Part shown: piece by piece, positions 1-44,548 of the stretch
Layout of the letters: every line of letters starts with the position of its first letter
How positions within the stretch are numbered: the stretch's first letter is position 1
IMG/VR virus record: IMGVR_UViG_2872678658_000002
Strand: one strand, 5' to 3'
DNA length: 45,439 nt
Source of the DNA: a virus
Taxonomy: Duplodnaviria > Heunggongvirae > Uroviricota > Caudoviricetes
Notes under the pieces: generated by a model
Databases searched by the model: none
What the model was told of the DNA's origin: nothing
The model's input: only the letters and a program-made list of their open reading frames with translations
Made by a program: the position numbers and the translations under genes

Positions 1-780
1 ATGAATTTTACGTTTACTGACTCTGGATACACTGAAACAAATAAAAACAATCCCCCAATCATATTCGTTCATGGATTTTTCATGAATAATGAAATGTTCA
101 AATACCAGTTTGACGAACTAAAAGAAAAACATAGAGTTGTTTGCATTAATGTTCGGGGATTCGATGCTCTCTCCGAAAAAATTGAGCCATTCTCGCTCTA
201 TGACATCGTTGATGACATTTTAAACGTCGCAGACTCACTACAACTGGATAAGTTTATTTTAGGTGGAATGTCGATGGGCGGATATATATCATTACGATTT
301 GCCCTGTCACATTCAGAACGTTTGTCAGGGCTAATCCTTATGGCAACTCAGGCAGAGCAGGATCCGCCAGAAATCGCGTCCAGTTACATGGAGTTATGTA
401 ATGGATGGCAAGACCCAATCATAAAGGAAAATATAATCAACTCATTATTACCCGTTTTTTTCGGAAATGATATCTCTGAAGCAGAGACATGGAGACAGGT
501 ATGGCTAGGCCATAAACCTGAAAATATCATAAAGGCCATGAATGCAATGCTGGAGCGCGACGACATTTCAGAAAGAATCCAGATAATCACAATCCCCACG
601 CTGATTATTCATGGTGCCAACGATATGGGGATACCATTAGAGAAAGCAATTCAAATGCACAAAATGATTGCGCATTCTAAGCTTGAAGTCATTCCCGACG
701 CAAATCATGCTCTAAATATCACTCATGCAAAGGAAGTAAATACAGCGATAAAAAACTGGCTGCAAAACAATCATATATAA
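1..780 (+). CDS. alpha/beta-hydrolase fold protein (putative esterase/lipase), AT-rich cargo gene
   Basis: 259-aa ORF with HGFF oxyanion-like motif, GxSxG-type nucleophile motif (GMSMGG), downstream Asp (HGANDMG) and His (DANHAL); low-GC codon usage unlike neighbouring phage genes. Confidence 0.6.
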   Translation: MNFTFTDSGYTETNKNNPPIIFVHGFFMNNEMFKYQFDELKEKHRVVCINVRGFDALSEKIEPFSLYDIVDDILNVADSLQLDKFILGGMSMGGYISLRFALSHSERLSGLILMATQAEQDPPEIASSYMELCNGWQDPIIKENIINSLLPVFFGNDISEAETWRQVWLGHKPENIIKAMNAMLERDDISERIQIITIPTLIIHGANDMGIPLEKAIQMHKMIAHSKLEVIPDANHALNITHAKEVNTAIKNWLQNNHI

Positions 781-818
781 AATTAATTATAACACATATT
801 AATTTCTTAATTATATTA

Positions 819-841
819 CGCCCGTAAAACTGTAGCGGGCG
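819..841. terminator. hairpin between convergent genes (cgcccg-11 nt loop-cgggcg)
   Basis: 6-bp inverted repeat seen directly between hydrolase stop (780) and minus-strand gene stop (982); no clean U-tract. Confidence 0.3.
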
Positions 842-981
842 TATGTTGTCACTCTGGTAGTGCCAGCCTCTCAATATCAGGTGCAGTTGATGTATCAACA
901 CGGTTCAGCAACACCCGATACTTTTTCCAGGCTTCCAGCAACGGGGTTTCTTCCTCCGTTGCATATACAGCTCACCTTTTT

Positions 982-1275
982 TCACCCACGATTAACCAAC
1001 AGCCAGACCAGCAGACACGCCACCACCGGCACAGCAAAATCCATCAGGCTTGCCACATCCCAAGCACGCGGATCAAAACCGCCCCACCACGGCATATTCA
1101 TTCGCTTGCCATGCCCGAACATTTCAATCCAGCGATATTCTGCCTGGGTATGTTCACGCGCAATGAAGAACGTACAACCGGCTATCGCTCCGTAAGCCCA
1201 GTTTCCGGTAAAAAGACCAACCAGTATCTGCGCAGCCACAGCACAAAGTGCATGAAGTAAGGGGCTTATATCCAT
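982..1275 (-). CDS. hypothetical small membrane protein (tail-fiber-distal cargo)
   Basis: 97-aa ORF with two hydrophobic segments, start 12 nt after upstream gene stop, same strand as tail genes. Confidence 0.45.
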   Translation of the reverse strand: MDISPLLHALCAVAAQILVGLFTGNWAYGAIAGCTFFIAREHTQAEYRWIEMFGHGKRMNMPWWGGFDPRAWDVASLMDFAVPVVACLLVWLLVNRG

Positions 1276-1287
1276 TATTTCCTCCTT

Positions 1288-1566
1288 TCAGCTCCATTCC
1301 CGAAGCGGTGTTTCCAGCTCCACGACATAATCAGAGAATACAGAAACATCAAACAAGTCATCAAGAATGCGAATGTTGACAAAATAACCATCATTCCGGA
1401 TACAGACAGGTTCTCCCTCTTCTGTTACCCCTGTTTCTGTGTAGGTGAAACCAATTTCATCAACTAACAGTTTATTCTGGAGGTCTTCATCTTCCGCCCA
1501 GCCAAGAGATGACAGGAAGGCCTTAAACTGCAGTTTGTCATGAAACTTCAAAGTTAAATCTTTCAT
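1288..1566 (-). CDS. small acidic protein translationally coupled to side tail fiber (possible fiber chaperone/accessory)
   Basis: 92-aa ORF; ATGA start/stop overlap with the stf stop codon at 1563-1566; D/E-rich. Confidence 0.45.
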   Translation of the reverse strand: MKDLTLKFHDKLQFKAFLSSLGWAEDEDLQNKLLVDEIGFTYTETGVTEEGEPVCIRNDGYFVNIRILDDLFDVSVFSDYVVELETPLREWS

Positions 1567-3632
1567 ACGACCTCTTTTAATTGCCTGTCATTTAATTCTT
1601 TATGCCATATGCGGAAATTGCGAATATGGCCAAACAGATGTCGTTCTCCAGTATTCGTCTGCCCTCCAAATCGGATATTTTTATCAGCGGTCACGCCATT
1701 ATATTCACAATAAACTTCATTAACCGCTTTACCATTTGTCACCACATGAAAGTGACCATCAGCTTTTGCAATACATCCAAATGTGGTTTTCTCTGCAAAT
1801 ACATCTGTCGCTGCGCTATTAACATACGAGCCTGAAGGGTTTGACAGACTCATATATAACTTACCACTACCTCTGTTGACTGCTGCAATTGCTGATTGCC
1901 CGGTATTGGCTGCTGCTATATCCCACACGCGGGGTGCGGCGTTTGGTGCAATATCCCAGTTTTTATGAATCTCAAGTAAAAAAGTAAATGGTAACTTATA
2001 AAGATTATTTCTGGTGGGGATACTAACCAAATCACTGGCTCTTGTCGTTGCGCTGCCTCCTGAAATAATAAATGATGATACACACGGCCCATTCTCTACT
2101 TGTGGGGTGGCAAGATAAATATAGTCACCAGATACTGTTGCCCCACCCTTCTCAGGAGAATACTGTATCTGAGAGCCTATTTTTAACTCACCATCAATTG
2201 CCTGAATCGTTGCCTCTGCAAAAATCCAGCCCGTGGTCTTATCCTTCCTGACTCGTGCCGTAATTCTGCCGGCAGCACCACCTGTCATATTAATTTCAAG
2301 CGTTTGCGTATCAATGTACGCATCGCCAAGAAAAGTTGTTGCACTTCCGTCATATTTATCAAACCGGATTCGCAACCTTACCTGCAGTTCTGTTTTAAAG
2401 CGACATGAGGTTGTCACGTATTTATTATCGCCTGAGACATCAACTGACTTTGTTGCAGCAATTGATGCCATATTAATAGCCGAAGTTTGCCCAACCAGAG
2501 AATCGTTGCAGACAAACTTTCCATAAGTAAAACCAAAACTATCCGTCCCGGTTTCGGGCACATCCATGTTTGATGACTTCCCCCAGCTGGCTGGACTTTC
2601 CGAATTGAGCATGTAGTTCGTTCTTTGTCCCTCAATAAGCAGGCCATCACACTCAAATCGCGGCTCATTAATTTCCGCCGTTTTCAGTTCGCCAGATTTG
2701 TTGATATATGTTGCCGTTGATGCGCGACTGAAATTAACCTGTTTATCACTGGCGACCTGAACCACATCGTCACCAATAGCTATTTTTTTATAGCCCGGAG
2801 AAAAACCCGCAATCATATCCAGTGAATCGTTAAACGGTATCCACACATCAGGCAGCGGCGGCACTATATTCGCATAGGGCTCTGCAGTCACTTCCGCTGC
2901 GGCTTCTGCGCGGTCTGCCGCCTTTTCAGCTCGTGTCGCTGCCGACAGAGCCTCATCCTTTTTCTGCCCGGCCTTTGTTGCGTCTGCTGCAGCCTCCCGC
3001 GCTTTTGTGGTGGCGACTCCGGCATTTTCAGCGGCTGACTCTGCATTACGGCGGGAAGCCTCTTCACTGTCTGCGGAGGCTTCTTCTGACGCACGGGCAT
3101 TTGTCTCTGAACGTTCTGCCGCTGTTGCTGCGTTTTGTGCGGCTGTTTTTGAAGAAGCTGCCGCTTTCGCGCTGTTACCTGCATTCGTCTCTGATGTTTT
3201 CGCCGCGTTCCTGGACGATGCCGCTGCTGTTTCTGATTTCTTTGCTGCCGCTGCGCTCTGAGAGGCGGCTTCAGCGTTGCGTGCCACATCCTCCACCATT
3301 TCCTGAAAACGGCGCAATGCCTCCGGCATGACATCATCTTCCGTCATGGCACCGAGAAAATCATTCAGCGTCCCCGGACTGGAACCTTCATAGACGGTAA
3401 TGGTCCCAACATGTGATGGCTGAGAACCCTCAATCCACAGGATGACGCTGTACTGACCATACTCAACGTCCATACTGTAACGCCCGGCTTCATCAGGATT
3501 TTCAGAGGCCACCGTGTTCACCAGTACCGTGGTGCTGTTACGCTTTGCCTTCAGTTGAATAGTGCAGTTCTGTATTGGTTTTCCCGCACCATCTTTCAGC
3601 ACACCTGAGATTTTTACTGCTGCCATATCCAC
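1563..3632 (-). CDS. stf: side tail fiber protein (lambda Stf-like N-terminus, divergent C-terminal receptor-binding region)
   Basis: 689 aa; N-terminus MAAVKISGVLKDGAGKPIQNCTIQLKAKRNSTT... matches remembered lambda Stf; Ala/Ser-rich repetitive stalk. Confidence 0.85.
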   Translation of the reverse strand: MDMAAVKISGVLKDGAGKPIQNCTIQLKAKRNSTTVLVNTVASENPDEAGRYSMDVEYGQYSVILWIEGSQPSHVGTITVYEGSSPGTLNDFLGAMTEDDVMPEALRRFQEMVEDVARNAEAASQSAAAAKKSETAAASSRNAAKTSETNAGNSAKAAASSKTAAQNAATAAERSETNARASEEASADSEEASRRNAESAAENAGVATTKAREAAADATKAGQKKDEALSAATRAEKAADRAEAAAEVTAEPYANIVPPLPDVWIPFNDSLDMIAGFSPGYKKIAIGDDVVQVASDKQVNFSRASTATYINKSGELKTAEINEPRFECDGLLIEGQRTNYMLNSESPASWGKSSNMDVPETGTDSFGFTYGKFVCNDSLVGQTSAINMASIAATKSVDVSGDNKYVTTSCRFKTELQVRLRIRFDKYDGSATTFLGDAYIDTQTLEINMTGGAAGRITARVRKDKTTGWIFAEATIQAIDGELKIGSQIQYSPEKGGATVSGDYIYLATPQVENGPCVSSFIISGGSATTRASDLVSIPTRNNLYKLPFTFLLEIHKNWDIAPNAAPRVWDIAAANTGQSAIAAVNRGSGKLYMSLSNPSGSYVNSAATDVFAEKTTFGCIAKADGHFHVVTNGKAVNEVYCEYNGVTADKNIRFGGQTNTGERHLFGHIRNFRIWHKELNDRQLKEVV

Positions 3633-3690
3633 TCCACAAAAAAGCCCGCCTGAACCGGCGGGCTGTCATAACACTGTGTTGCCTGGTTAA

Positions 3691-4290
3691 TCAGAATTTA
3701 TAACCGACACCAACGATGAAACCGTCAGTGCGCCAGTCGCCACTGCCGGAACCTTCATAAGCAATATCAATGGCCACGGATTCGGTCGGGTTAAACTGCA
3801 CGCCAGCCCCCCACGCCAGAGACGTGTCGCTGTAGCGACCGTCATCACTTCCGGTCAGCACATCGTCCGTTTTCCCCTTGTTATCAGTTACGCGGAGATA
3901 ATCCCCGGAGAAAGTCGACACACGGCTGTAAGCCACGCCCGCCATCGCATACGTGCTGAACCATTCATTCACGCGTACAGACGGCCCCGCCATCATGCTG
4001 AACCAGCGGTTACGCACGGAATCTTCATGCCAGCGGGTATCGCTGTAGTGCGTTTTTTGCTCATCCTCAGCATTGGCATAACTGAAGGACGTAATCAGCC
4101 CCAGCGCGTCCGTAAACTCATAACGGTATTTCACGTTAATCCCGTTCAGATTATCGCTGCCGGGAGCGTTCGTACGGGCATGAAGATACCCCGCGCTCAG
4201 TGTGGACTGATGTTCAGACGCCCATGCAGGCGCACCGGATACGGACAGACAGATGGCTGCGGACAAAATGGCTGCACATAATTTACGCAT
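3691..4290 (-). CDS. lom: Lom outer-membrane protein (Ail/Lom family)
   Basis: 199 aa, signal peptide, C-terminal ...GVGYKF beta-barrel terminus; position between J and stf as in lambda. Confidence 0.85.
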   Translation of the reverse strand: MRKLCAAILSAAICLSVSGAPAWASEHQSTLSAGYLHARTNAPGSDNLNGINVKYRYEFTDALGLITSFSYANAEDEQKTHYSDTRWHEDSVRNRWFSMMAGPSVRVNEWFSTYAMAGVAYSRVSTFSGDYLRVTDNKGKTDDVLTGSDDGRYSDTSLAWGAGVQFNPTESVAIDIAYEGSGSGDWRTDGFIVGVGYKF

Positions 4291-4357
4291 AATTACCTCT
4301 CGCTTTTCTGCAATAAAAAAGGCGCCATTTCTGGCGCCCGTATTGGGGTTATAAAAT

Positions 4358-7300
4358 TCAGCTAATCGTGATGCCTGCAGTGGCTTTCTTCATCACAACA
4401 ACCAGCAAATCGCTGATACTTGCTGTGGGATACCAGCCATTTACCCACCATGCTGATACAGAAAACTCCAGCGTCATGTCGCCGCGACCAGCAGGCATAT
4501 CAATAACACCACTGTAAACCAGCGTATTATCCATCGCGGTACGGTTATAAATTTCAGCACCGTTTTTCTTCACTATCAGGCGGCATGACGAATAAGTATC
4601 GCTGTTCTCCCGCTCATGTCTGGCACCGCTGAAAGCCACCGCCGGAATAACAATCTGCCGGTTAAACGGCTGATCGTCATAAACCCTGACGGTAATGGTT
4701 CCTGATGGCCAACGCTTCGGTGCACGGGAGTCACGAGGGAAAGCCTTACCCACTGTTTTAACGAGATCGCCTTCAATCTGGTTTGCAGACAGTTTCCCTC
4801 TGATGACACAGTTCTCGTTAATGGTGACATTATTGAGCGTGCCGGTATTCGCCGTGATGGCTCCACTGATATCCGCATTGCGGGCTGTCAGCCTGCCATC
4901 CGGCGTCAGGGAAAACGTCGGAGGATTGCCGGATGACGTGATGCTCACCGCAAACAGTCGCTTCAGGAACACGTCGTTCATGAACAGCTGATTCCCCTGC
5001 GCCACAAACAGCGGCGTGGTGTTGCCGTTCTCCGGGGTAATCATCGCAATGCGATCGGCCTGCAGCAGAATGTTACTCAGGGTCTGACCATCAACATCCT
5101 CAATCCCCGCACCAATCCCGGCCACATAGGGAATACCGTTTTTTGTTTTCTGCACCTTCAGCATATACATGGCATTCAGCTCATTGCGCGTGTCTGACTG
5201 AACCCGCTGGATTTGCTGTATGGTCACGGCCTGGTCACCCAGCTTTTTATCCGTGGTCGAGGTAATTTCACTCCCTTTTTTATCCACGTACTGGCGGACC
5301 TGTGCTATCTGTCGGGCGTTTTCTGACTGCCCCTGGCTGACAGTCTGTGAGATTTCACTGCTCACCCGGTCCACTTTCTGGCTCACCTGCGCGATGGCCA
5401 GTGTCTGATCCTCATTCTTTTTCGCAACCAGCTGCGTGAGGCTGTTTTCCGCCTTCCCGATTTTCCGGGTCACTTCTGCGATATCCGTGTCCATCCGCTG
5501 ACGGATATCTTCTTCCAGTTGCGTGACCTCCGTACGCAGCGCTGAAGCATCAATGCGCTCTTTCAGTGCCTGACCCAGAAGCGTCTCATCTATCAGCCCC
5601 CGGAAAATTTCCAGATACCCTTCACCATCATTGCTGGGCTGCCCGCTGGCTTCCACAAAAGCAGATTTTCCCACCAGGTTGACGCTTCGCACGTAAAACC
5701 AGAAATCCGTTCCCGGCTTAATCCGGCTCCCCTGGACAGTCCACTGACTGCCGGTCCCCAGATAACGGGCAGATTTTTCCACCTGTGCTGTGTTCGTGAT
5801 GCGTTTTTCTGAGAACCAGAATTCAAACTGTACCGTCGGGTCATACACCGCAAGACGCGGGACCGCCGTTATCTGAAAATACCCCGGCGTCAGCTCAATG
5901 GTGGCGGGTTTTGCAGGTGCGTTAATCCGGAACGATACCGACGCCGGATCGCCCTGCTGTCCCCGGGCATTTACCGCCCGGACCGTCAGCGTGTAACGCC
6001 CCAGCGCCAGCTGCCTGAAGCGGTAAGTGGTTTCCGCCGTCCGGGCCGTGCTGACCAGCCGCTCACTGCCGTCATCCGCTGTTACGGTCAGACGGAGCAG
6101 GAAGCTCACGCCCTTCACCACCTTCGGCGTGTCCCAGCGCGCCAGCACCTGATATTCCCCGCTGTCTGCGGTGACTTCGGCGGTCAGGTGCTGCACCGCT
6201 GGCGGCGTGACACCATTCACCGTGCCGCTCTGGTCGCCGTCAAAGTGCGCTCCGTTATCCACGATGGCCTCTTTTTCCGGTACATGCTGCACGGCGGTGA
6301 TGGCATACGTGCCGTCATCGTTCTCACGGATACTCACGCAGCGGAACAGGCGCTGGCGCAACGTCGGCAGCTTCAGTCCCCATACGCTGTATTCTGCAAC
6401 GCCGTCAGGAACACGGCTCACTTTTACCTTCACGCCGTCGGTGACGGACTGGACCTCCACGCTGACCGGATTCCCCTGTCCGTCAGCCAGGCTTATCAGC
6501 GTGGTGCCGGAGGATGGCAGCGTGATTTCACGGTCGAGCGTCAGTGTCCGCGTCTGGTTGTTCACCGCCAGCACGCGCCCGCCGATGCTGATCCCCGCAT
6601 AGTCATCATCACAGATTTCAATGACATCGCCCGGTACATGGCGAAGCCCTTCTGCACCCACGCTGAAGTCCACGGTCTGCGTTTCCAGCAGCTCCGTTTT
6701 AATCAGCCACAGCCCGGCGCGGTGTGCCTGCCCCCGGCTGGTACAGCCAAAGGCATCCATCTTCGTGACGTTACGACCGTAACGGGCAATGGCCTGCGTG
6801 TCCTCCACAAGCTCTGTCGCCGTCTCCCAGCCGTTATCCGGGTCAATCCAGTTCACCTCAACGGCATTATGGCGGTCTTTCAGGGCGCTGAAGCTGTAGC
6901 GGAACGGCGCGCCATCATCCGGCATCACCACATTACTGCGGTTATAGGTCCACACCTTATCCGACGGTCGGTCCTGCACGAATGTCAGCGTCTGCCCGTT
7001 CCATACCGGCATACAGCGCATCGCCGAGCAAAAATCACTGAGCACATCCCACGCCTTGCGCTGTGTGGTCAGGTACGCATTACAGGTGATGCGCGGCTCC
7101 GTGCCGCCAAAGCCGTCCGGCACTGACTGGTCGCAATTCTGGCCGATGACATACAGCGCCCATTTATCCACATCTGCCGCACCAAGACGTTTCCCCATGC
7201 CGTAGCGCGGATGGGTCAGCATATCCCACAGACACCAGGCCATGTTGTTGCTGTATGCTGGCTTAAACGTTCCGTCCCAGATACCGCTGTATTGCCGCGT

Positions 7301-8056
7301 CTGCGGGTTATAGTTCGACGGCACCTGCAGAATGCGCCCGCGAAGATGATAATTACGGCTCACCTGCTGGCTGCCGAACTGCTCCGAGTCCACCTGTACG
7401 CCGACCAGTGCCGTGTTCGGGTAGCACTGTTTCACATCGATGATTTCGGTGTATGACGACCAGAGCGTTTTGTTCTGCAACTGGTCTGTGGTGCTGTCCG
7501 GCGTCATCCTGCGCATCCGGATATTAAACGGGCGCGGCGGCAGGTTATCCACCACCACCGAGGCCAGATACTGCGACGTGGTTTTGCCCTTAATGGTGAT
7601 GTCTTTTTCCGTCACCCAGCCACCGTTACGTTGAATCTGAACCAGCAGGCGGACTTCCGATGGATTCCTGTCCCCCTTTGAGGTGGTTTCCACCAGTGCC
7701 TGCACGCCGAAAGTAAAACGCAGACGGTCAATGTTTGCCGACGTGATGGTCCGGGTGATCGGCGTGTCATATTTCACTTCTGTACCGAGCACCGTCTCGG
7801 AGCCGGAGGATTCAAATCCCTCCGGCGGTGTCTGCTCCTGCTCACCGGCCCGGAACACCACCGTGACGCCGAATATATTGGTATTCCCCTCACTGTCCAG
7901 CACCGGCGTACTGTTCAGCAGCACGCTTTTTAATCCATCCACCGGACCTTCAACCGGCCCTTCGCTGATGGCGTCTATCACGCTCAGCATCTGGGATGAT
8001 TTCAGGTTGTCCTTCGCTTCGCGCGGGGTATGCCCCTTACTGCTGCCTTTACCCAT
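4358..8056 (-). CDS. J: tail tip/host specificity protein J
   Basis: 1232 aa beginning [20 protein letters not shown], long identity to remembered lambda J over most of the length, divergent extreme C-terminus. Confidence 0.95.
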
Positions 8057-8116
8057 TCCTCATGCTCCATAAACGATAAAACCGCCCGGAGGCGGTTTCA
8101 CATAAAACATTTTGCA

Positions 8117-8788
8117 TCAGCGACCAATCACCACAACCTGACCACCATCCCCTTCGTCTGCCGTGCTGATCTCCTGAGAAACCACGCGTGACCCCACGCG
8201 CATTTCACCGTACAGAACCGGCAGAACATTGCCCTGGGCAACCATGTTATCCAGTGAGGAGAAATAGGTGTTCTGTTTGCCGTTATCCGTTGTCTGTGTA
8301 CGGGGAGTTCTGGCTTTCGGTGCCAGCATCTGCGCCACACCACCGAGCACCATACTGGCACCGAGAGAAAACAGGATGCCGGTCATACCACCGGCCCCAA
8401 TGGCTGCCCCCCATGCTGCAAGGGTGGCTCCGGCGGTAAAGAATGATCCGGCAATGGCGGCAGCCCCCAGGACAATCTGGAATACGCCACCTGACTTGGC
8501 CCCGGCGACTCTGGGAACAATATGAATCACAGCGCCATCAGGCAGAGTCTCATGTAACTGCGCCGTTAACCCGGACGTGCTGACGTCCCGCCCGGCAATC
8601 CGTACCTGATACCAGCCGTCGCTCAGTTTCTGACGAAACGCCGGGAGCTGTGTGGCCAGCGCCCGAATGGCTTCAGCCCCCGTTTTCACACGAAGGTCGA
8701 TGCGGCGGCCAAATCGTTGTAAATCCCCGTAAAGGCAGATGCGCGCCATGCCCGGTGACGCCAGAGGGAGTGTGTGCGTCGCTGCCAT
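8117..8788 (-). CDS. I: tail assembly protein I
   Basis: 223 aa, lambda I-like sequence, overlaps K 3-prime end as in lambda. Confidence 0.9.
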   Translation of the reverse strand: MAATHTLPLASPGMARICLYGDLQRFGRRIDLRVKTGAEAIRALATQLPAFRQKLSDGWYQVRIAGRDVSTSGLTAQLHETLPDGAVIHIVPRVAGAKSGGVFQIVLGAAAIAGSFFTAGATLAAWGAAIGAGGMTGILFSLGASMVLGGVAQMLAPKARTPRTQTTDNGKQNTYFSSLDNMVAQGNVLPVLYGEMRVGSRVVSQEISTADEGDGGQVVVIGR

Positions 8789-9429
8789 TTGTCGGTATAC
8801 CTCTCTCGTTTGCTCAGTTGTTCAGGAATATGGTGCAGCAGCTCGCCATCACCACAGTAAATGGCGGCATGATTCGGCACCGATGAACCAAAACAGCACA
8901 GCAGCACATCGCCCGGTTGTGCTGATGACAACGGCACCTGATACAGCCCTGTGGCCTCCAGATTATCCAGATAGAGATTCTGATCGTGACGCCACCAGTC
9001 ATCCTCGCGATGAAAATCCGGCATCTCAATCCCCGCCAGATGATAAGCATCCCGGAACAGCGTGTAACAGTCCGTCACCCCGTGCTCAAAGCGCCGCCCG
9101 GTGAGATGCGGCACACAGCGGAACTTATGAATCGCCCCCCGGCAGACCAGCAACCACGGCAAATCACTCTGCACCTGCAGCCGCCGGTCAGCCTCACTCA
9201 GCCAGGGCAGACCACCGGGGTGGCTGTGGACCAGCGCCACAATCTCACCCTGCATTTCTGCCTGCAGCCAGTCCTCCGGAGCCATCCGGAAATACGCCTC
9301 CGGCTCACCGGAGATATTCACGCAGGGAAAATATCTTTCCCCCTCCGGCGCTCTCACCACGAAGCCGCACGACTCCGCTGGCGCACATCGCCGGGCGTGC
9401 GCCAGAATCGCTGATTCTGTCTCTGTCAT
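8686..9429 (-). CDS. K: tail assembly protein K (NlpC/P60 + JAB-like)
   Basis: ORF 8686-9471; lambda K-like sequence begins at internal Met (MTETESAILAHARR), so start placed at 9429. Confidence 0.85.
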   Translation of the reverse strand: MTETESAILAHARRCAPAESCGFVVRAPEGERYFPCVNISGEPEAYFRMAPEDWLQAEMQGEIVALVHSHPGGLPWLSEADRRLQVQSDLPWLLVCRGAIHKFRCVPHLTGRRFEHGVTDCYTLFRDAYHLAGIEMPDFHREDDWWRHDQNLYLDNLEATGLYQVPLSSAQPGDVLLCCFGSSVPNHAAIYCGDGELLHHIPEQLSKRERYTDKWQRRTHSLWRHRAWRASAFTGIYNDLAAASTFV

Positions 9430-9433
9430 GGGA

Positions 9434-10132
9434 TTACTGCGAAAGTTTGTTAATGGAAAGGAAGCCGCCAAAGTTGCCGACGTTATTGCGGAACTTACAA
9501 CCGCTCAGGCATTTGCTGCATTTATCCTTCGTGATATCGGACGTTGGCTGGTCATATTCATCCGCGACCGCCGGACCGTGATAACCGCACTCATCGCCGC
9601 GATAGGTCCAGGTGCAGGTGTTGGCCAGCATGATACGTCCCGGAAAAACAGCGCCGTCCGTTTCCGTCGGCGTGGACAGTACAAAGGAGGCACTGACCGC
9701 GCTCAGTTCGCTGCACTGCTCAATGCGCCAGCGGCTGATCACCTCCTGCTCCGGATCGGCGTCTCTGTTTCCGTTGACGAAGTTCACCGCATCCAGAAAA
9801 CGGGCGTAAACCTTACGCCTGACCACCGTTCCGCCGACCAGACTCTGCAGATCTTCCGCCATCCCGGTGACCATGCCGTACAGGTTAGAAACCGTCAGCG
9901 TGGGGCGCGTACTGGTGCCTTTGCCATTCAGTTCAAAACCACTCCCCTGAATGGGATACGCCTGATACTGCCGCCCCTGCCAGGTGACCGGCTCACCTTT
10001 TTCGTTCTGCTCATTACAGAAAAAATAACGTTCTCCACCGACCTCTGTCAGATCGATTTCCCAGAGCACCACGCTGGCCGACTGCTCCGCACGGGTGCAT
10101 TCATTCAATGTTTCCTGCCGGATATCCTGCAT
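9434..10132 (-). CDS. L: minor tail protein L
   Basis: 232 aa, MQDIRQETLNECTRAEQSASVVLWEIDL... lambda L-like. Confidence 0.9.
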   Translation of the reverse strand: MQDIRQETLNECTRAEQSASVVLWEIDLTEVGGERYFFCNEQNEKGEPVTWQGRQYQAYPIQGSGFELNGKGTSTRPTLTVSNLYGMVTGMAEDLQSLVGGTVVRRKVYARFLDAVNFVNGNRDADPEQEVISRWRIEQCSELSAVSASFVLSTPTETDGAVFPGRIMLANTCTWTYRGDECGYHGPAVADEYDQPTSDITKDKCSKCLSGCKFRNNVGNFGGFLSINKLSQ

Positions 10133-19152: not shown

Positions 19153-22833
<3,681 letters not shown>

Positions 22834-22859
<26 letters not shown>

Positions 22860-23379
22860 TCAGCAACCCCGGTATCAGTTCATCCAGCGCGGCTGCTTTG
22901 TTCATGGCTTTGATGATATCCCGTTTCAGGAAATCAACATGTCGGTTTTCCAGTTCCGGAAAACGCCGCTGCACCGACAGGGGGATCCCGTCGAGAATAC
23001 TGGCAATTTCACCTGCGATCCGCGACAGCACGAAAGTACAGAATGCGGTTTCCACCACTTCAGCGGAGTCTCTGGCATTTTTCAGCTCCTGTGCGTCGGC
23101 CTGCGCACGCGTAAGTCGATGGCGTTCGTACTCAATAGTCCCTGGCTGGAGATCTGTCTCGCTGGCCTGGCGCAGTTCTTCAACCTCCCGGCGCAGCTTT
23201 TCGTTCTCAATTTCAGCATCCCTTTCGGCATACCATTTTATAACGGCGGCAGAGTCATAAAGCACCTCATTACCCTTGCCACCGCCTCGCAGAACGGGCA
23301 TTCCCTGTTCCTGCCAGTTCTGAATGGTACGGATACTCGCACCGAAAATGTCAGCCAGCTGCTTTTTGTTGACTTCCAT
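22834..23379 (-). CDS. Nu1: terminase small subunit Nu1
   Basis: 181 aa MEVNKKQLADIFGASIRTIQNWQEQGMPVL lambda Nu1-like. Confidence 0.95.
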
Positions 23380-23556
23380 TGTTCATTCCACGGCCAAAAA
23401 CAGAGAAAGGAAACGACAAAGGCCCAAAAGTTCGTTTTCAGCACCTGTCGTTTCCTTTCTTTTCAGGGGGTATTTTAAATAAAAACATTAAGTTACGACG
23501 AAGAAGAACGGAAACGCCTTAAACCGGAAAATTTTCATAAATAGCGAAAACCCGCG
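23380..23556 (-). promoter_or_regulatory. cosB-like terminase binding region between cosN and Nu1
   Basis: reverse complement matches remembered lambda left-end sequence (GGGCGGCGACCTCGCGGGTTTTCGCTATTTATGAAAATTTTCCGG...). Confidence 0.7.
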
Positions 23557-23568
23557 AGGTCGCCGCCC
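23557..23568. other. cosN cohesive-end site (12-nt, reverse complement GGGCGGCGACCT)
   Basis: aggtcgccgccc seen at 23557-23568 directly upstream of Nu1 on the phage strand. Confidence 0.85.
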
Positions 23569-23767
23569 CGTAACCTGTCGGATCGCCGGAAAGGACCCGC
23601 AAAATGATAATAATTATCATCTGCATGTCACAACGTGCATCTACGCCATCAAACCACGTCAAATAATCAATTATGACGCAGGTATCGTATTAATTGATCT
23701 GCATCAACTTAACGTAAAAACAACTTCAGACAATACAAATCATCGACACTGAATACAGGGCAACCTC

Positions 23768-24001
23768 ATGTCAACGAAGAACAGAACCCGCAGAACAACA
23801 ACCCGCAACATCCGCTTTCCTAACCAAATGATTGAACAAATTAACATCGCTCTTGTTCAAAAAGGGTCCGGGAATTTCTCAGCCTGGGTCATTGAAGCCT
23901 GCCGCCGGAGACTGTGCTCAGAAAAAAGAGTTTCGCCTGAAGCAAACAAAGAAAAGAGTGACATTACTGAATTGCTCAGAAAACAGGTCAGACCAGATTG
24001 A
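23768..24001 (+). CDS. small ribbon-helix-helix-like protein
   Basis: 77-aa ORF; N-terminal beta-strand/helix pattern (RNIRFPNQMIEQINIALVQKGSGNFSAWVIEACRRRL) resembles CopG/Arc-type RHH fold. Confidence 0.5.
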   Translation: MSTKNRTRRTTTRNIRFPNQMIEQINIALVQKGSGNFSAWVIEACRRRLCSEKRVSPEANKEKSDITELLRKQVRPD

Positions 24002-24058
24002 AGCAATTTAGATAATCGTGCAGACTACGCCCCCTCATATCACATGGAAGGTACTACA

Positions 24059-24469
24059 ATGGCTCAGGTTGCCATTTTTAAACAAATATTCGATAAAGTG
24101 CGAAATAATTTAAACTATCACTGGTTTTATTCTGAACTAAAACGTCACAATGTCTCACATTACATTTACTATTTAGCCACAGAGAATATTCATCTTGTTC
24201 TTGAAAACGATAATACGGTTTTAATAAAAGGACAGGGTAAGGTTGTAAATGTAAGATTTTCAAAAAATAAATGCCTTATAGAAGCCACCTTAAAAGGATT
24301 CAAATCAGGAGAGTTATCATTTTACGAATACAGGAAAAATCTTGCTACAGCAGGGGTTTTCAGATGGATTACAAATATCCACGAAAACAAAAGGTATTAC
24401 TATACCTTTGATAATTCATTACTCTTTACTGAGAACATTCAGAACACTACACAAATATTTCCGCACTAA
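24059..24469 (+). CDS. DUF1398-family protein (YbcV-like)
   Basis: start set at ATG 24059 preceded by GGAAGG; AT-rich; sequence recalled as resembling DLP12 YbcV/lambda right-arm ORF. Confidence 0.5.
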
Positions 24470-25057
24470 ATCATAACGTCCGGTTTCTTCCGTGCCAGAA
24501 CCGGACTCGCTGGCATGATGAAATATGTGTACCCGGTAACCCCGGTGTGCATCGTTTTTGATTATTCCCGCACACTCGCGCAGAAGGAGTTCCCCGTCGG
24601 GCTACGGTCTCTGTTAATACGGGAATACGGCGACGATACAGCGCATGATGTGTCAGGCTTGAATACCTTTATCCTTTAAAAGGGATATCAGTTAAGTTAT
24701 CCCGTGTAGGGTATAAGCCATTATCAAAGCCACTCTGTAGGGAATGGCTTTTGTGATGGCATCACTTACTCTTTACGCTGCTATCCCACTCATCCCGGAA
24801 TTTTGATGGGTTATTGAAACCTTCTGCTGACATAACAACTCCTTCAATGTTTGGCTGAAATTAGGATGTCTTTCCATCAGTCCGCCACCACAAAGAATCT
24901 TTTTTGCCATAAGGCAGGAGGTTCATCTTTCAGTGGCTGCCGGTGTTATTTCCCCACTTACTGGCTTGGGTTGTTTCGTGGTACTGCCGTTAACTGGTGG
25001 CCCAGAATAAATTCCGGTTTCATTATCAAGCCCACCCGTAAATGGGCTTTGTAATGG

Positions 25058-25333
25058 CTACTTCACTTTTGCTTTTGCTTTTGCTTTTGCTTCCGCTCGC
25101 TTACGCCGGCGCTCTTCTTTCCTCTCGGCTTTTGCCATGTCCATGAATGCCTGCATGATCGAGTTCCGCATCATGTAGCTAACAAAGTGATGATTGACAC
25201 AGCCGTTGAGGCGCAGCTGCTCGCCAAACTCATCCACCGAGGCCAATGCTTCCATCATGCCCTTCTCGCCTTTCATGAACTCTGAGAAGTCGCGCCCCGC
25301 TCTGGAGGCGCATTCAATAACACGATCACTCAT
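25058..25333 (-). CDS. hypothetical protein with C-terminal (AK)n repeat, coupled to KilA-N protein
   Basis: 91-aa ORF overlapping upstream gene by 4 nt; C-terminus encoded by tandem CTTTTG hexamers. Confidence 0.5.
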   Translation of the reverse strand: MSDRVIECASRAGRDFSEFMKGEKGMMEALASVDEFGEQLRLNGCVNHHFVSYMMRNSIMQAFMDMAKAERKEERRRKRAEAKAKAKAKVK

Positions 25334-25827
25334 CCCGGAAGCCCGGGGATCGTAATCTGCAGCTGGTTAGCCAGGGAGTTAATCTCAGCGACCAACACTG
25401 GCTTCGTATAGCGCCATGCTGCCAGCCCTTGTCCGCAGAAGCTCGCCATGTCTTTCTTCTGGTCAAACTCATGACATTTCATGTTGAGCTGCGCACTTAA
25501 GCTGTTGCGATGCTGAAGTTCTCCGGTGAAGTAGTCATCGAGGACTTTATAGGCCGCGTACTTGAACCCGGGGTTTAACCAAGCCGCATAATCGTAAGCA
25601 ACAAACTTCCCGCCATATGTTCCACCGTGTACACCGCGCTCAGTAAAAACCACAGATTCGTGGTTTTTCTCCAGCTCGGCTAAGAACTCTTTGGTCTGCT
25701 TGTTTCGCAGGTAGTGGTAAGGCGATTCAGATTCACTTTTACCACTGGCTTTCCACATATCAGTGAGGCAGATCATGCCATCTTCACCGATACGAATTGG
25801 TTGATTGAAGAGGGTTAATGATTTCAT
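25330..25827 (-). CDS. KilA-N domain protein
   Basis: 165 aa; N-terminal region (IRIGEDGMICLTDMWKASGKS...YLRNKQTKEFLAEL) fits the KilA-N pattern. Confidence 0.55.
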   Translation of the reverse strand: MKSLTLFNQPIRIGEDGMICLTDMWKASGKSESESPYHYLRNKQTKEFLAELEKNHESVVFTERGVHGGTYGGKFVAYDYAAWLNPGFKYAAYKVLDDYFTGELQHRNSLSAQLNMKCHEFDQKKDMASFCGQGLAAWRYTKPVLVAEINSLANQLQITIPGLPG

Positions 25828-25942
25828 AGCGTGTACCTACTCTTTGAAATGAACCTTTGCCGCACAGGAAACCAGCCCACCGAGGCTCGCCAGCACTAAC
25901 TGGTATCCTCAAAGGCCCATTCCAAAGGGGCAGGTTCGGTGT

Positions 25943-25967
25943 AAAAAACATGCGTTGCGGTACGCAT
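25943..25967 (-). terminator. candidate rho-independent terminator downstream of Rz/Rz1
   Basis: minus strand stem atgcgt-loop-acgcat followed by U-run (plus-strand A6 at 25943-25948). Confidence 0.4.
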
Positions 25968-26028
25968 TTATTGCAAAAAGCCCCGCATCGCGAGGCTCAT
26001 TAAATGGACTTTGTGATTTGCAAAAAAA

Positions 26029-26502
26029 TTATTTCAGGCATTGCGTCCTGATGTATTCCTGCAGGTAGTTAACCTGCGCGGTTATCTTGTCGATTCCACT
26101 TCGGAGACGGTAATAATTGAGTTCAGCATCTGCTGTAAGTCTTGGGCTTTCTCCATCGCCCATGCTGCTGGCTCCGGTCGTTGACTTTGCACAGGTGGCG
26201 GCGACTTGCAGGCGCTTACGACCAGCAGAAACATCAGCACGGAGACTTTCGATAGTCGCATTAGCATCAGCAAGCTCCTTTGTGTATCTGGCGTCGAGTT
26301 CTGCTACATCACGTTGACGCTTCCGCATGTCAGCGATGGTGGCGTTCGCCTTCTCCAGTTCACTGGCCTTGTTATCGCGCTGCTCTTTGTAGGCGATTGC
26401 GTTATCACGGTAATGATTAACAGCCCATGACAGGCAGACGATGATGCAGATAACCAGAGCATAAATAATCGCGGCGACTCTGCTCACTGATCTATCCCCC
26501 AA
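26029..26502 (-). CDS. Rz: spanin inner-membrane subunit Rz
   Basis: 157 aa, N-terminal TM then coiled coil, lambda/21 Rz-like. Confidence 0.85.
26082..26273 (-). CDS. Rz1: spanin outer-membrane lipoprotein Rz1 (embedded in Rz, +1 frame)
   Basis: 63-aa ORF wholly inside Rz; lipobox (VVSAC) and Pro-rich stretch. Confidence 0.75.
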
Positions 26503-27017
26503 CAGGCTAATGCGCTTTCCTGGTCACGACGAATAACCTGTCCATAGCAGTTATTTGAACGTATGCGGCAATCGCGCCCACCATCTTTTATCCACCAGCG
26601 AATCGCCTCGCATGCACCTTTACGATCACCGGCATTCAGCCGCTTATAAAACGTCGACGGGAAACACTTACCGGGGCCAATGTTATAGGGACAAAATGAC
26701 GCGATACCCGCTTTCTGTGGTTCGGTCAGTGGCACTTTAATATTGCGCTCCACCCATGCCAGCGCCTTATCCCGTTCAATGGCGTTAACCTGGTCGCATT
26801 TTTCCTTCGACAGTTTCATACCGGGAAAAACGGGTTTTCCATCCACCACCGTGGCACCCCGACAGATGGTCCAGATGCCGGAACCATCGCGGTATGCCGT
26901 TGTGTGGTTACCTTCTTTTTCATCCAGAAACTGGTCGAGAATATCAGGCGCAGGCGCACCGACGGCAATCAGTGCCAGAACGGCAGCCGACAGGCCGTAT
27001 CTGATTTTTGCGTTCAT
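26484..27017 (-). CDS. R: lysozyme (T4/P22-type, probable signal-anchor-release endolysin)
   Basis: 177 aa; N-terminal hydrophobic segment; E...D...T catalytic spacing in [16 protein letters not shown]. Confidence 0.8.
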
Positions 27018-28047: not shown

Positions 28048-28725
28048 ATGTCCATCATTTTTAATGGACACTATCGTATGAAACACCGGACCTGGATCAC
28101 TGAAGCTTTACGTCTTCACTTTGAAGAACATTTACCCCGGGTTGTGGCCGGGCGTCGCCTGGGTGTACCAAAATCAACAGTTTGTAGTATGTTCGTGCGC
28201 TTTCGGAGAGCTGGCCTTTCGTGGCCTTTGCCCGCAGGCATGTCGGAGCAGGAACTTGATGCCTGCCTTTACGGACAATTTTCCACGGTACCAGTCGTAC
28301 GTCCTGAAAGCACCGTTATATCCGAAGCCCCCGTGGTAAAAAAACGTCCCCGGCGGCCCAACTTCCCTTATGAGTTTAAAATCGCCTTAGTGGAGCAGTC
28401 ACTGCAGCCCGGAGCCTGTGTGGCGCAGATCGCCCGGGAAAACGGAATCAACGATAACCTGCTCTTCAACTGGCGCCATCAATACCGGAAAGGTGGCCTG
28501 CTGCCTTCCGGAAAAAATATGCCGGCACTGCTTCCCGTGACGTTAACGCCGGAGCCGGATAATAAAATCCCGGCCCCCGCACAGGAACCAGAGCAGATAA
28601 ATACACCGTCCGACAGTCTGTGTTGTGAGCTGGTTCTGCCGGCCGGAACTCTCAGGCTTAAAGGTAAACTGACGCCGGCGTTATTACAGACACTTATCCG
28701 CGAAATAAAAGGGAGCAGCCACTGA
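28048..28725 (+). CDS. tnpA: IS66-family accessory protein TnpA (HTH)
   Basis: 225-aa ORF, HTH-like segments; first of three IS66-type ORFs. Confidence 0.7.
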   Translation: MSIIFNGHYRMKHRTWITEALRLHFEEHLPRVVAGRRLGVPKSTVCSMFVRFRRAGLSWPLPAGMSEQELDACLYGQFSTVPVVRPESTVISEAPVVKKRPRRPNFPYEFKIALVEQSLQPGACVAQIARENGINDNLLFNWRHQYRKGGLLPSGKNMPALLPVTLTPEPDNKIPAPAQEPEQINTPSDSLCCELVLPAGTLRLKGKLTPALLQTLIREIKGSSH

Positions 28726-29072
28726 TGATATCTCTCCCTGCAGGTTCGCGTATCTGGCTGGTTGCAGGTATCACCGATATGCGAAATGGCTTTAACGGCC
28801 TGGCATCAAAAGTTCAGAACGTCCTGAAGGATGACCCGTTCTCCGGACACCTGTTCATCTTCCGCGGACGCCGGGGTGACCAGATAAAAGTGTTGTGGGC
28901 TGACAGTGACGGACTGTGCCTCTTCACCAAACGCCTGGAGCGGGGCCGCTTCGTCTGGCCAGTCACCCGTGACGGCAAGGTGCACCTTACTCCGGCTCAG
29001 TTATCCATGCTTCTTGAAGGTATCAACTGGAAGCACCCGAAACGAACGGAACGCGCTGGAATCCGCATATAA
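28725..29072 (+). CDS. tnpB: IS66-family protein TnpB (orfB)
   Basis: 115 aa, typical IS66 orfB size and sequence, start overlapping tnpA stop. Confidence 0.85.
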   Translation: MISLPAGSRIWLVAGITDMRNGFNGLASKVQNVLKDDPFSGHLFIFRGRRGDQIKVLWADSDGLCLFTKRLERGRFVWPVTRDGKVHLTPAQLSMLLEGINWKHPKRTERAGIRI

Positions 29073-29091
29073 CCCGTTGTAAAGTGAGGAT

Positions 29092-30663
29092 ATGGACACC
29101 TCACTTGCTCATGAGAACGCCCGCCTGCGGGCACTGTTGCAGACGCAACAGGACACCATCCGCCAGATGGCTGAATACAACCGCCTGCTCTCACAGCGGG
29201 TGGCGGCTTATGCTTCCGAAATCAACCGGCTGAAGGCGCTGGTTGCGAAACTGCAACGTATGCAGTTCGGTAAAAGCTCAGAAAAACTTCGTGCAAAAAC
29301 CGAACGGCAGATACAGGAAGCACAGGAGCGAATCAGCGCACTTCAGGAAGAAATGGCGGAAACGCTGGGTGAGCAATATGACCCGGTACTGCCATCCGCC
29401 CTGCGCCAGTCTTCAGCCCGTAAACCGTTACCGGCCTCACTTCCCCGTGAAACCCGGGTTATCCGGCCGGAAGAGGAATGCTGTCCTGCCTGTGGTGGTG
29501 AACTCAGTTCTCTGGGATGTGATGTGTCAGAGCAACTGGAGCTTATCAGCAGCGCCTTTAAGGTTATCGAAACACAACGTCCGAAACAGGCCTGTTGCCG
29601 GTGCGACCATATCGTGCAGGCACCAGTACCTTCAAAACCCATTGCACGCAGTTATGCCGGAGCGGGGCTTCTGGCCCATGTTGTCACCGGGAAATATGCA
29701 GACCATCTGCCGTTATACCGCCAGTCAGAAATATACCGTCGTCAGGGAGTGGAGATGAGCCGCGCCACGCTGGGGCGCTGGACCAGTGCTGTTGCTGAAC
29801 TGCTGGAGCCGCTGTATGACGTCCTGCGCCAGTATGTGCTGATGCCCGGTAAAGTCCATGCTGATGATATCCCCGTCCCGGTCCAGGAGCCGGGCAGCGG
29901 TAAAACCCGGACAGCCCGGCTGTGGGTCTACGTCCGTGATGACCGTAACGCCGGTTCACAGATGCCCCCGGCGGTCTGGTTCGCGTACAGTCCGGACCGG
30001 AAGGGTATCCATCCTCAAAATCACCTGGCCGGTTACAGCGGTGTGCTTCAGGCCGATGCTTACGGTGGTTACCGGGCGTTATACGAATCCGGCAGAATAA
30101 CGGAAGCCGCGTGTATGGCTCATGCCCGGAGAAAAATCCACGATGTGCATGCAAGAGCGCCCACCTACATCACCACGGAAGCCCTGCAGCGTATCGGTGA
30201 ACTGTATGCCATCGAGGCAGAGGTCCGGGGCTGTTCAGCAGAACAGCGTCTGGCGGCAAGAAAAGCCAGAGCCGCGCCACTGATGCAGTCACTGTATGAC
30301 TGGATACAGCAACAGATGAAAACACTGTCGCGTCACTCAGATACGGCAAAAGCGTTCGCATACCTGCTGAAACAGTGGGATGCACTGAACGTGTACTGCA
30401 GTAATGGCTGGGTGGAAATCGACAACAACATCGCAGAGAACGCCTTACGGGGAGTGGCCGTAGGCCGGAAAAACTGGATGTTCGCGGGTTCCGACAGCGG
30501 TGGTGAACATGCGGCGGTGTTGTACTCGCTGATCGGCACATGCCGTCTGAACAATGTGGAGCCAGAAAAGTGGCTGCGTTACGTCATTGAACATATCCAG
30601 GACTGGCCGGCAAACCGGGTACGCGATCTGTTGCCCTGGAAAGTTGATCTGAGCTCTCAGTAA
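29092..30663 (+). CDS. tnpC: IS66-family transposase TnpC
   Basis: 523 aa, N-terminal coiled coil/leucine zipper, Cys-rich zinc ribbon, DDE-like core. Confidence 0.85.
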
Positions 30664-30924: not shown

Positions 30925-30999
<75 letters not shown>

Positions 31000-31002
31000 A
31001 TA

Positions 31003-31078
<76 letters not shown>

Positions 31079-31080
31079 AC

Positions 31081-31157
31081 TGGACCGCCACCGGGGACTC
31101 GAACCTCGCACACTCAACTTAAAGGGTTGACGCTCTTTCCTGATGAGCTAGTGGCGG
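31081..31157 (-). tRNA. tRNA-like gene with atypical anticodon loop CCUUUAA (anticodon UUU if canonical; C at position 33)
   Basis: foldable cloverleaf with 7-bp acceptor stem, D and T arms (T-loop UUCGAGU), abuts next tRNA with 1-nt spacer. Confidence 0.5.
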
Positions 31158-31158
31158 C

Positions 31159-31234
31159 TGGTGGCCCTTGCTGGATTTGAACCAGCGACCTGGCGATTAT
31201 GAGTCGCTCGCTCTCACCACTGAGCTAAAGGGCC
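31159..31234 (-). tRNA. tRNA-Ile2-like (anticodon CAU, ileX/ileZ type)
   Basis: 76 nt, anticodon loop ACUCAUAA; body far closer to remembered ileX than to elongator tRNA-Met. Confidence 0.75.
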
Positions 31235-44458: not shown

Positions 44459-44548
44459 TGGCGGAGAGAGGGGGATTTGAACCCCCGGTGGAGTTGCCCC
44501 CACTCCGGTTTTCGAGACCGGTCCGTTCAGCCGCTCCGGCATCTCTCC
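44459..44548 (-). tRNA. serU: tRNA-Ser (anticodon CGA), integration target
   Basis: 90-nt cloverleaf with long variable arm, anticodon loop CUCGAAA; 3-prime end faces integrase. Confidence 0.85.

Follow-up and report, generated by a model that had tools for sequence, protein, structure and literature searches.

A YlcI/YnfO (DUF3950) gene and a DUF1398 gene beside the cohesive end of a lambda-type prophage: proposed independent accessory genes in place of a toxin-antitoxin pair

Introduction

Whether two small adjacent phage genes on one strand act together or merely share a site is the question raised by positions 23768-24469 of the Caudoviricetes record IMGVR_UViG_2872678658_000002, a stretch of 45,439 nucleotides that is referred to here, in its entirety, as the window. 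An earlier note, made from the letters alone, had likened the two open reading frames (ORFs) at this place, ORF1 and ORF2, to a regulator-effector or antitoxin-toxin layout, lying next to the cos site, with an Arc/CopG-like N-terminus in the first protein. The window is a lambda-type prophage, and the explanation we consider somewhat better than evenly likely is that ORF1 and ORF2 are two independent accessory ("moron") genes of this prophage, placed beside Fur, FNR and PdhR sites and forming no functional pair.

Identity of the two genes

ORF1 (23768-24001, plus strand) encodes a basic protein of 77 amino acids with an isoelectric point of 10.9, belonging to the YlcI/YnfO family (DUF3950). 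It matches Pfam PF13132 (DUF3950) with an expectation value (E) of 2e-20 and 72.8 bits against a cut-off of 25, and NCBIfam NF041551 (YlcI/YnfO) with 35.2 bits against a cut-off of 30, and also matches phrog_949, while its identity to the Escherichia coli YlcI/YnfO proteins reaches 96%. Alignments locate the family core, K-x-IRFP...NFSAWV[IL][ED]AC, at residues 12-50, and the size of the protein fits the range of about 60-80 amino acids. ORF2 (24059-24469, plus strand) encodes a soluble protein of 136 amino acids from the DUF1398 family (YdfO/YbcV/lambdap78), with a guanine-cytosine (GC) content of 31% and with no hydrophobic segment, signal peptide or membrane segment. Its assignment to DUF1398 in the earlier note is confirmed by Pfam PF07166 (E 3e-43, 147 bits, profile positions 1-119 of 119), and it aligns over its full length with PDB entry 2HH8, the nuclear magnetic resonance (NMR) structure of E. 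coli YdfO (E 1.4e-69), being about 77% identical to YdfO.

The longest version of ORF2 spans 24044-24469 (141 amino acids) and would reduce the gap to ORF1 to 42 nt. The start at ATG 24059 is favoured because GGAAGG precedes it at good spacing for a ribosome-binding site, the Prokaryotic Genome Annotation Pipeline (PGAP) selects it, and a 1-bp deletion upstream in phage ev099 disrupts the longer frame; with this start, the previously reported gap of 57 nt is correct.

Both genes are under purifying selection. The ORF1 core, compared with phage BP-4795, gives a synonymous divergence (dS) of 0.81 and a nonsynonymous divergence (dN) of 0.08, a dN/dS of about 0.10, and ORF2 gives a dN/dS of 0.21-0.36. 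From these ratios and the Pfam matches it follows that ORF1 and ORF2 are genuine genes and not chance ORFs.

Both genes are also already catalogued: their annotations can be found in thousands of E. coli genomes, K-12 (Qin and DLP12 prophages) included, and effectively in lambda. A stretch of 1131 nt is 100% identical to a prophage of avian pathogenic E. coli (APEC) strain IMT5155, where the annotation reads "ynfO: YlcI/YnfO family protein" and "DUF1398 domain-containing protein", and a match to this stretch occurs in 4298 of 5426 complete E. coli genomes. The homologues are ynfO-ydfO in Qin, ylcI and ybcV in DLP12, and, in lambda, lambdap78 together with an unannotated 64-amino-acid ORF (48303-48109, complement). 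A literature search found no functional study of DUF1398, DUF3950, ynfO, ylcI, ydfO or ybcV. Both genes are among the last of the lambda region without an assigned function.

DUF3950 is a small family: just 108 representatives at 50% identity (E <=0.001) were recovered among 1.84 billion proteins, several of them being error-laden lambda reads; the core is kept throughout the family and the C-terminal tails vary freely. Alignments of viral-contig loci gave near-identical copies only and were of no use for diversity.

Separability of the two genes

The genes part company in both directions. Among phage records, 155 carry a YlcI/YnfO protein versus 43 with DUF1398, and Shiga toxin (Stx) phages, BP-4795 for example, carry a lone DUF3950 gene that diverges from the HNH-TerS-TerL genes (TerS and TerL, small and large terminase) and lies downstream of Rz. 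In E. coli genomes the YlcI core is found at 9861 places in 4184 genomes, with up to 12 in a single genome, full-length DUF1398 is found in 3011 genomes, and O157:H7 chromosomes have YlcI at 8 places versus ybcV at 1. Elsewhere ylcI stands alone and convergent with a Rha gene (strain SJ3), or is followed by iss, a cargo of the bor/iss type, in other E. coli loci. DUF1398 also stands by itself: for 2373 E. coli records the best match is ycgX, a lone DUF1398 gene adjoining bluR, and a DUF1398 gene adjoins sopE2 in Salmonella. A search of 6 kb around 40 diverse Enterobacterales YlcI-like loci returned no DUF1398 gene at any of them. In lambda and DLP12, where both families are present, the opposite-strand gene ybcW separates ylcI from ybcV.

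Mosaic structure of the locus

Pairwise alignments divide the locus into three blocks. Positions 23560-23930 comprise the cos end and the first 54 codons of ORF1 and match lambda, DLP12 and ylcI-only prophages at 94-97% identity; positions 23981-24645 correspond to the ybcV block, including 75 nt of the ybcV upstream region. In prophages lacking DUF1398, the segment 24538-24645 directly follows ylcI; the DUF1398 block itself (23931-24537) is missing from these ylcI-only prophages, and the flanks there are 94-97% identical. Because the flanking blocks are contiguous in other prophages, the alignments identify the DUF1398 gene as an insertion/deletion cassette.

The same junction bears on the end of ORF1. 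From 23981 onward the sequence is that found upstream of ybcV in lambda and DLP12, where it lies outside ylcI, and ORF1 tails differ between alleles. By this comparison, the tail of the 77-amino-acid version is a by-product of the junction (23930/23981), a fusion to ybcV upstream DNA, and not a conserved partner-binding domain.

The layout described in the earlier note is confirmed, with one small correction on base composition. The cosN cohesive-end sequence aggtcgccgccc (23557-23568), outside the gene pair and given for context, is by sequence comparison the reverse complement of the lambda cohesive end, GGGCGGCGACCT. The right end of lambda J02459 is alignable up to 23569, leaving 199 nt from the cos cut to the ORF1 start. 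Both ORFs lie on the plus strand, and Nu1 (22834-23379; Phage_Nu1, E 4e-101), the large terminase gene A (20934-22859) and Rz with lysozyme (26029-27017) all lie on the minus strand, so that the position to the right of cos and opposite to packaging and lysis is borne out. The moron position also holds, the ORF2 block being present or absent among collinear phages and lying at a module boundary. The description of both genes as AT-rich applies to ORF2 (31.4% GC) and to ORF1 in a mild form (44.9%, with 48.7% in its conserved core), compared with 51.8% for the whole window.

Comparison with known loci

The closest known arrangement is ynfO-ydfO of Qin, next to nohA, which has the same families, order, strand and spacing, beside a Nu1 homologue and cos, with 90% identity to the Qin-type locus over 23560-24507. 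ORF1 differs from its Qin counterpart at 2 residues and ORF2 is about 77% identical, representing a distinct allele (dS 0.68 versus the Qin type), and the Fur, FNR and PdhR sites are those described for the K-12 locus. The downstream genes differ: gnsB, ynfN and cspI follow in Qin, whereas a KilA-N gene and a phrog_875 gene follow here.

With the lambda right end and DLP12, the locus shares the cos end, the spacer and ORF1 codons 1-54 at 94-96% identity, and the DUF1398 gene and its flanks at 83% identity. In those two, however, about 560 bp containing the opposite-strand ybcW (lambdap79) lies between the two genes, YlcI has 64 amino acids with another tail, and bor follows; ybcW and bor are both absent from the window. 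In lambda, lambdap79 was scored essential by CRISPR interference (CRISPRi) although deletions are viable (PMC10695390), a result that may reflect a polar block of the late transcript crossing the region.

Compared with established lambdoid morons (bor/iss, lom), the two genes similarly sit between modules, run opposite to late transcription, are absent from close relatives, show atypical base composition and are host-regulated or prophage-expressed (PMC12288877). They differ in that no host benefit has been demonstrated and no clear promoter-terminator pair can be defined here.

Predicted fold of ORF1

ORF1 was modelled with AlphaFold2 as a single chain from an alignment of 20 sequences. In this model residues 14-18 are extended or coil, helices span residues 19-32 and 37-54 around a GSGN turn, and the core has predicted local distance difference test (pLDDT) values of 73-83. 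The conserved core (residues 12-50, 23801-23917, plus strand) is accordingly predicted as a ribbon-helix-helix (RHH) domain made of the strand NIRFP, helix 19-32, the turn GSGN and helix 37-54. The RHH topology of strand, helix A, tight turn and helix B is seen in the single-chain model, the strand itself forming only in a dimer. On the basis of this prediction we consider an RHH fold probable for ORF1. The best structural neighbours of the model are RHH type II antitoxins, including ParD, RelB, CopG-family proteins, TacA and others.

Sequence searches gave no comparable support. BLASTP of ORF1 against Arc produced no alignment, phmmer and a profile search against PDB sequences produced no match, and a Pfam scan of 20 DUF3950 members with E up to 10 recovered no RHH family. 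Using hhalign, residues 12-33 of ORF1 were placed onto residues 9-30 of Arc in the expected register, with NIRFP on NLRWP, at a non-significant P of 0.037 and a probability of 1.4%; against Mnt the expected register on NFRMP was likewise obtained, at a non-significant P of 0.22. The Arc/CopG-like N-terminus of the earlier note is therefore supported by predicted structure and not by sequence searches, and the profile searches it had called for assign ORF1 to DUF3950 and ORF2 to DUF1398 and 2HH8, with no RHH profile for ORF1.

ORF1 thus resembles P22 Arc and Mnt in its predicted strand-helix-turn-helix topology and in an N-[IL]-R-[FW]-P strand motif in register with Arc NLRWP and Mnt NFRMP. It is unlike them in showing no significant sequence similarity, in that RHH Pfam models do not detect DUF3950, and in lacking an arc-ant-type operon at its locus. 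The RHH type II antitoxins (ParD, RelB, CopG-family, TacA) share with it an N-terminal RHH domain followed by a variable C-terminal tail, whereas ORF1 has no conserved partner gene and its tail is not conserved.

Regulatory sites around the two genes

Between cos and ORF1, conservation from lambda to this prophage amounts to 94-100%, and this spacer contains a perfect 7-1-7 Fur box, TGATAATAATTATCA (23605-23619), the sole match in the 45-kb window with 0 expected, which is kept 163 bp upstream of ylcI in lambda and in all lambda-type loci. This box corresponds to the Fur site known as "nohA/nohB", which was established by gel shift together with in vivo selection (PMC2189734) and to which a peak from chromatin immunoprecipitation (ChIP) also maps (PMC3688515). 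The divergent region in which that site lies also belongs to ynfO/ylcI, still unannotated when the older papers appeared. Overlapping it is a putative strong sigma-70-like promoter on the minus strand, GTGACA-16-TATCAT (23604-23631), directed through cos towards Nu1 with its -10 element inside the Fur box; it agrees with the consensus at 10 of 12 positions and scored best in a weighted scan.

Closer to ORF1 lies a perfect FNR-type box, the inverted repeat TTGATCTGCATCAA (23694-23707), again the sole match in the window, with 0.05 expected. A 24-nt FNR site here is identical to the K-12 FNR ChIP-chip targets nohA/ydfO and nohB (PMC1802558). Three TTAATTGAT-like half-sites extend over 23666-23711, the first at 23666-23674 and the last two constituting the FNR box; these half-sites could equally be candidate operators for YlcI itself.

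A PdhR-type palindrome, AACAGGTCAGACCAGAT (23982-23998), lies inside ORF1 at its 3' end, 61-77 nt before ORF2 begins, and belongs to the block travelling with DUF1398. It exactly equals the Qin PdhR site from genomic systematic evolution of ligands by exponential enrichment (gSELEX), and ybcV mRNA is 10-fold lower in a pdhR mutant (PMC7660256). The presence of this site in the last codons of ORF1, together with the pdhR effect on ybcV mRNA, argues that ORF2 has its own promoter. Overlapping ybcW-ylcI transcripts have been described in MG1655 by RNA sequencing (PMC12288877).

Proposed explanation and its weak points

In the explanation we favour, the two genes occupy the variable segment between lysis and packaging, where accessory genes sit, and read against the late operon; they are therefore expressible mainly in the prophage state. 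ORF1 would be expressed from the resident prophage in the absence of late transcription, whose course through the gene would be antisense. The protein would form an Arc-like dimer and bind DNA through its beta-ribbon (N14, R16) and an arginine-rich N-terminal arm. Its role would be that of a small repressor or an autoregulator at the divergent control region that it shares with the first packaging gene. ORF2 would have a separate transcript, starting from a PdhR-dependent promoter within the final codons of ORF1, and would yield a soluble, non-essential, stress-responsive protein affecting host physiology. The cargo after ylcI would be interchangeable, being DUF1398 here and bor/iss or nothing elsewhere. 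Viewed as morons, the genes combine the atypical GC content of ORF2, host regulator sites and K-12 homologues that are transcribed (PMC12288877, PMC4077768, PMC7660256), with no consensus promoter.

Several points weigh against this explanation. The Fur box overlaps the minus-strand promoter-like site towards Nu1, so that Fur may control that site and not ORF1, and promoter scans revealed no convincing plus-strand sigma-70 promoter for ORF1. Where the two genes are adjacent, they may be co-transcribed. DUF3950 has no sequence-profile link to any RHH family, no DNA target is known for YlcI, and the ORF2 model is too poor for use (pLDDT 46, with 2HH8 only at rank 12).

Taken as proposed, the finding is an ordinary one, neither a new toxin-antitoxin nor a new defence system. 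Part of its residual value lies in the probable RHH fold, which gives DUF3950 a testable activity, DNA binding.

Alternative explanations

A type II toxin-antitoxin or dedicated regulator-effector system, in which ORF1, as an RHH antitoxin, would use its C-terminal tail to neutralise ORF2 and would also repress the operon, would account for the shared strand, the RHH gene coming first and the 57-nt gap, and the 77-amino-acid tail version of ORF1 is seen only where DUF1398 directly follows. Against this stand the separability of the genes in both directions, in phages and genomes, ybcW lying between them in lambda and DLP12, the frequent lone ycgX, and the origin of the tail at a recombination junction. 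ORF2 matched no toxin or defence family in Pfam or PADLOC; in PADLOC-DB v2, ORF1 had no match and ORF2 reached only Csx23, at E 0.025 and 12.6 bits. YdfO was overproduced for the NMR work behind 2HH8, its overexpression is cited as raising oxidative-stress resistance, that is, as protective (PMC4077768), and lambdap78 is non-essential by CRISPRi (PMC10695390). Owing to the separability, the cassette structure, the lack of a toxin match, the overproduction and protective report for YdfO and the dispensability of lambdap78, this reading fails its defining tests; the unit proposed in the earlier note does not survive them, and we regard it as extremely improbable. Anti-phage defence or superinfection exclusion, by the pair or by ORF2 alone, seems very improbable as well. 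Accessory genes of prophages gather at this hot spot, and ORF2 is AT-rich and has documented expression under stress, ydfO being induced >100-fold by ionic liquid (PMC4077768); one phage-resistant APEC mutant has also lost ydfO among other genes (PMC8711792), a loss that is no evidence for a role in resistance. However, no PADLOC match has a meaningful score, there is no enzymatic or sensor domain and no phenotype in the searchable literature, and DUF1398 occurs in ordinary chromosomal contexts too.

Two further alternatives concern ORF1 and its neighbours. YlcI/YnfO may be a packaging-linked DNA-binding factor near cos that modulates terminase access or expression, with satellites exploiting the same module. 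In two unrelated systems (Nu1/A here, HNH-TerS-TerL in BP-4795) DUF3950 and the first packaging gene are arranged head-to-head, as are DUF3950 and a primase/packaging operon at about 24 of the 40 satellite-like loci; five protein clusters fuse DUF3950 to the N-terminal DNA-binding part of the small terminase, and the conservation of the cos-to-ORF1 spacer points the same way. Lambda packaging in vitro, though, needs only terminase and integration host factor; some DUF3950 genes lie in contexts without packaging genes, the position could merely reflect tolerance of accessory genes, and there is no identified binding site. We judge this reading unlikely, and give the same weight to its fuller form, a cos-proximal YlcI/YnfO factor whatever the terminase type, copied by satellites resembling phage-inducible chromosomal islands (PICIs), some of them fusing it to a helper TerS domain, with DUF1398 as incidental cargo. 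If true, the DUF3950-TerS fusion would be a decoy or a redirector when phage and satellite compete for packaging. The link of DUF3950 to packaging operons and satellites is a cheap hypothesis to test in lambda. An immI-like switch, with ORF1 acting as P22 Arc/Mnt do and controlling a nearby antirepressor-type gene (KilA-N/ORF11CD3 at 25330-25827; Ant, Rha or Bro elsewhere), is quite improbable. Antirepressor-like neighbours are frequent, with KilA-N here, ant in BP-4795, Rha in SJ3 and Bro-N in satellites (PMC13612085), and ORF1 has the Arc-like strand motif, but the ylcI/ynfO genes of lambda, DLP12 and Qin have no antirepressor nearby, and in the window the genes are convergent and >1 kb apart, with no divergent operator arrangement.

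DUF3950 in satellite-like elements

The five clusters of DUF3950-TerS fusions encode proteins of 120-129 amino acids with a Terminase_2 small terminase part, which in the E. coli CP027459 fusion is 64-66% identical to the small terminase of a Stx-type prophage. Upstream regions of satellite DUF3950 genes contain a perfect palindrome (arms >=6) in 13 of 24 cases versus 11% of shuffles, and one such gene has TATAAT flanked by two TGGTACGTACCA palindromes 33 bp apart. These operator-like palindromes and repeats upstream of the satellite genes support a regulator role for DUF3950 in the relatives. Comparison of the upstream regions of lambda-type, BP-4795-type and satellite DUF3950 genes yielded no meaningful shared 8-mers.

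In CP027459.1 a capsid-forming satellite, spanning about 1-8900 of the locus and comprising an integrase, an AlpA-like protein, a primase, its own small terminase and capsid genes, is situated in the packaging region of a Stx-type prophage. It has two DUF3950 genes, one fused to a helper-type TerS N-terminal domain (the fusion gene at 7001-7363), with operator-like palindromes and GTTTAACAC repeats upstream. Most of the divergent YlcI-like genes from diverse Enterobacterales occur in satellite-like elements, as the sole opposite-strand gene between int/alpA and the primase operon, and often adjoin a Bro-N gene. Other YlcI-like genes occupy unrelated positions in chromosomes; one in Salmonella, for instance, is flanked by sopB-like and pipD-like genes.

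Downstream block and surroundings

Just past the ORF2 stop a hairpin (24478-24506, plus strand) was recognised by folding and alignment; its stem is kept in five contexts, and it has no T-tract and is not called an intrinsic terminator. A terminator scan found none with a T-tract after ORF2. About 108 nt of conserved non-coding sequence (24538-24645) mark the right edge of the DUF1398 cassette; this block is present in 432 phage records, Stx2a phages included, and comes after whichever gene ends the ylcI-side cassette. RNA folding of 24474-24645 gave z values of -0.9 and -0.8, no structure signal, and an Rfam search of 22800-26100 returned nothing credible. Annotators of HK629 and HK630 place the bor promoter in the region corresponding to 24478-24645, and this prophage has no bor. 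A 54-amino-acid ORF at 24515-24679 was rejected as a gene, being frameshifted in lambda.

Databases label DUF1398 as "head protein" (in PHROG 413 and in RefSeq phage records) and, for lambdap78, as "putative envelope protein"; both labels look unfounded. They are unsupported because the protein is soluble, without a signal peptide or membrane segment, and non-essential, and they should not be propagated. The 177-amino-acid start of lambdap78 (lambda 47042-47575) looks over-extended, the conserved start giving 136 amino acids.

Lambda right-end DNA contaminates many assemblies of unrelated taxa (Streptomyces, Pseudomonas, Staphylococcus, Synechocystis and others), appearing in genome loci, plasmid matches and ENA contigs of about 3.5 kb; we infer sequencing control or spike-in DNA as its source. 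This contamination inflates the apparent host range of the DUF3950 and DUF1398 families.

Frameshifts in Q and in the integrase gene of the collinear APEC IMT5155 prophage make it probable that the prophage as a whole is defective. The late strand carries, downstream of Rz, the KilA-N/ORF11CD3 antirepressor-like gene and the phrog_875 gene (25058-25827). Farther along, an IS66 element (tnpA, tnpB, tnpC) lies near the holin gene at 28048-30663, followed by a cluster of four tRNA genes at 30925-31234 (Gly, Thr, Lys and one whose anticodon is CAT and which the matching genome lists as Ile); a tRNA-Ser gene marks the prophage edge at 44459-44548.

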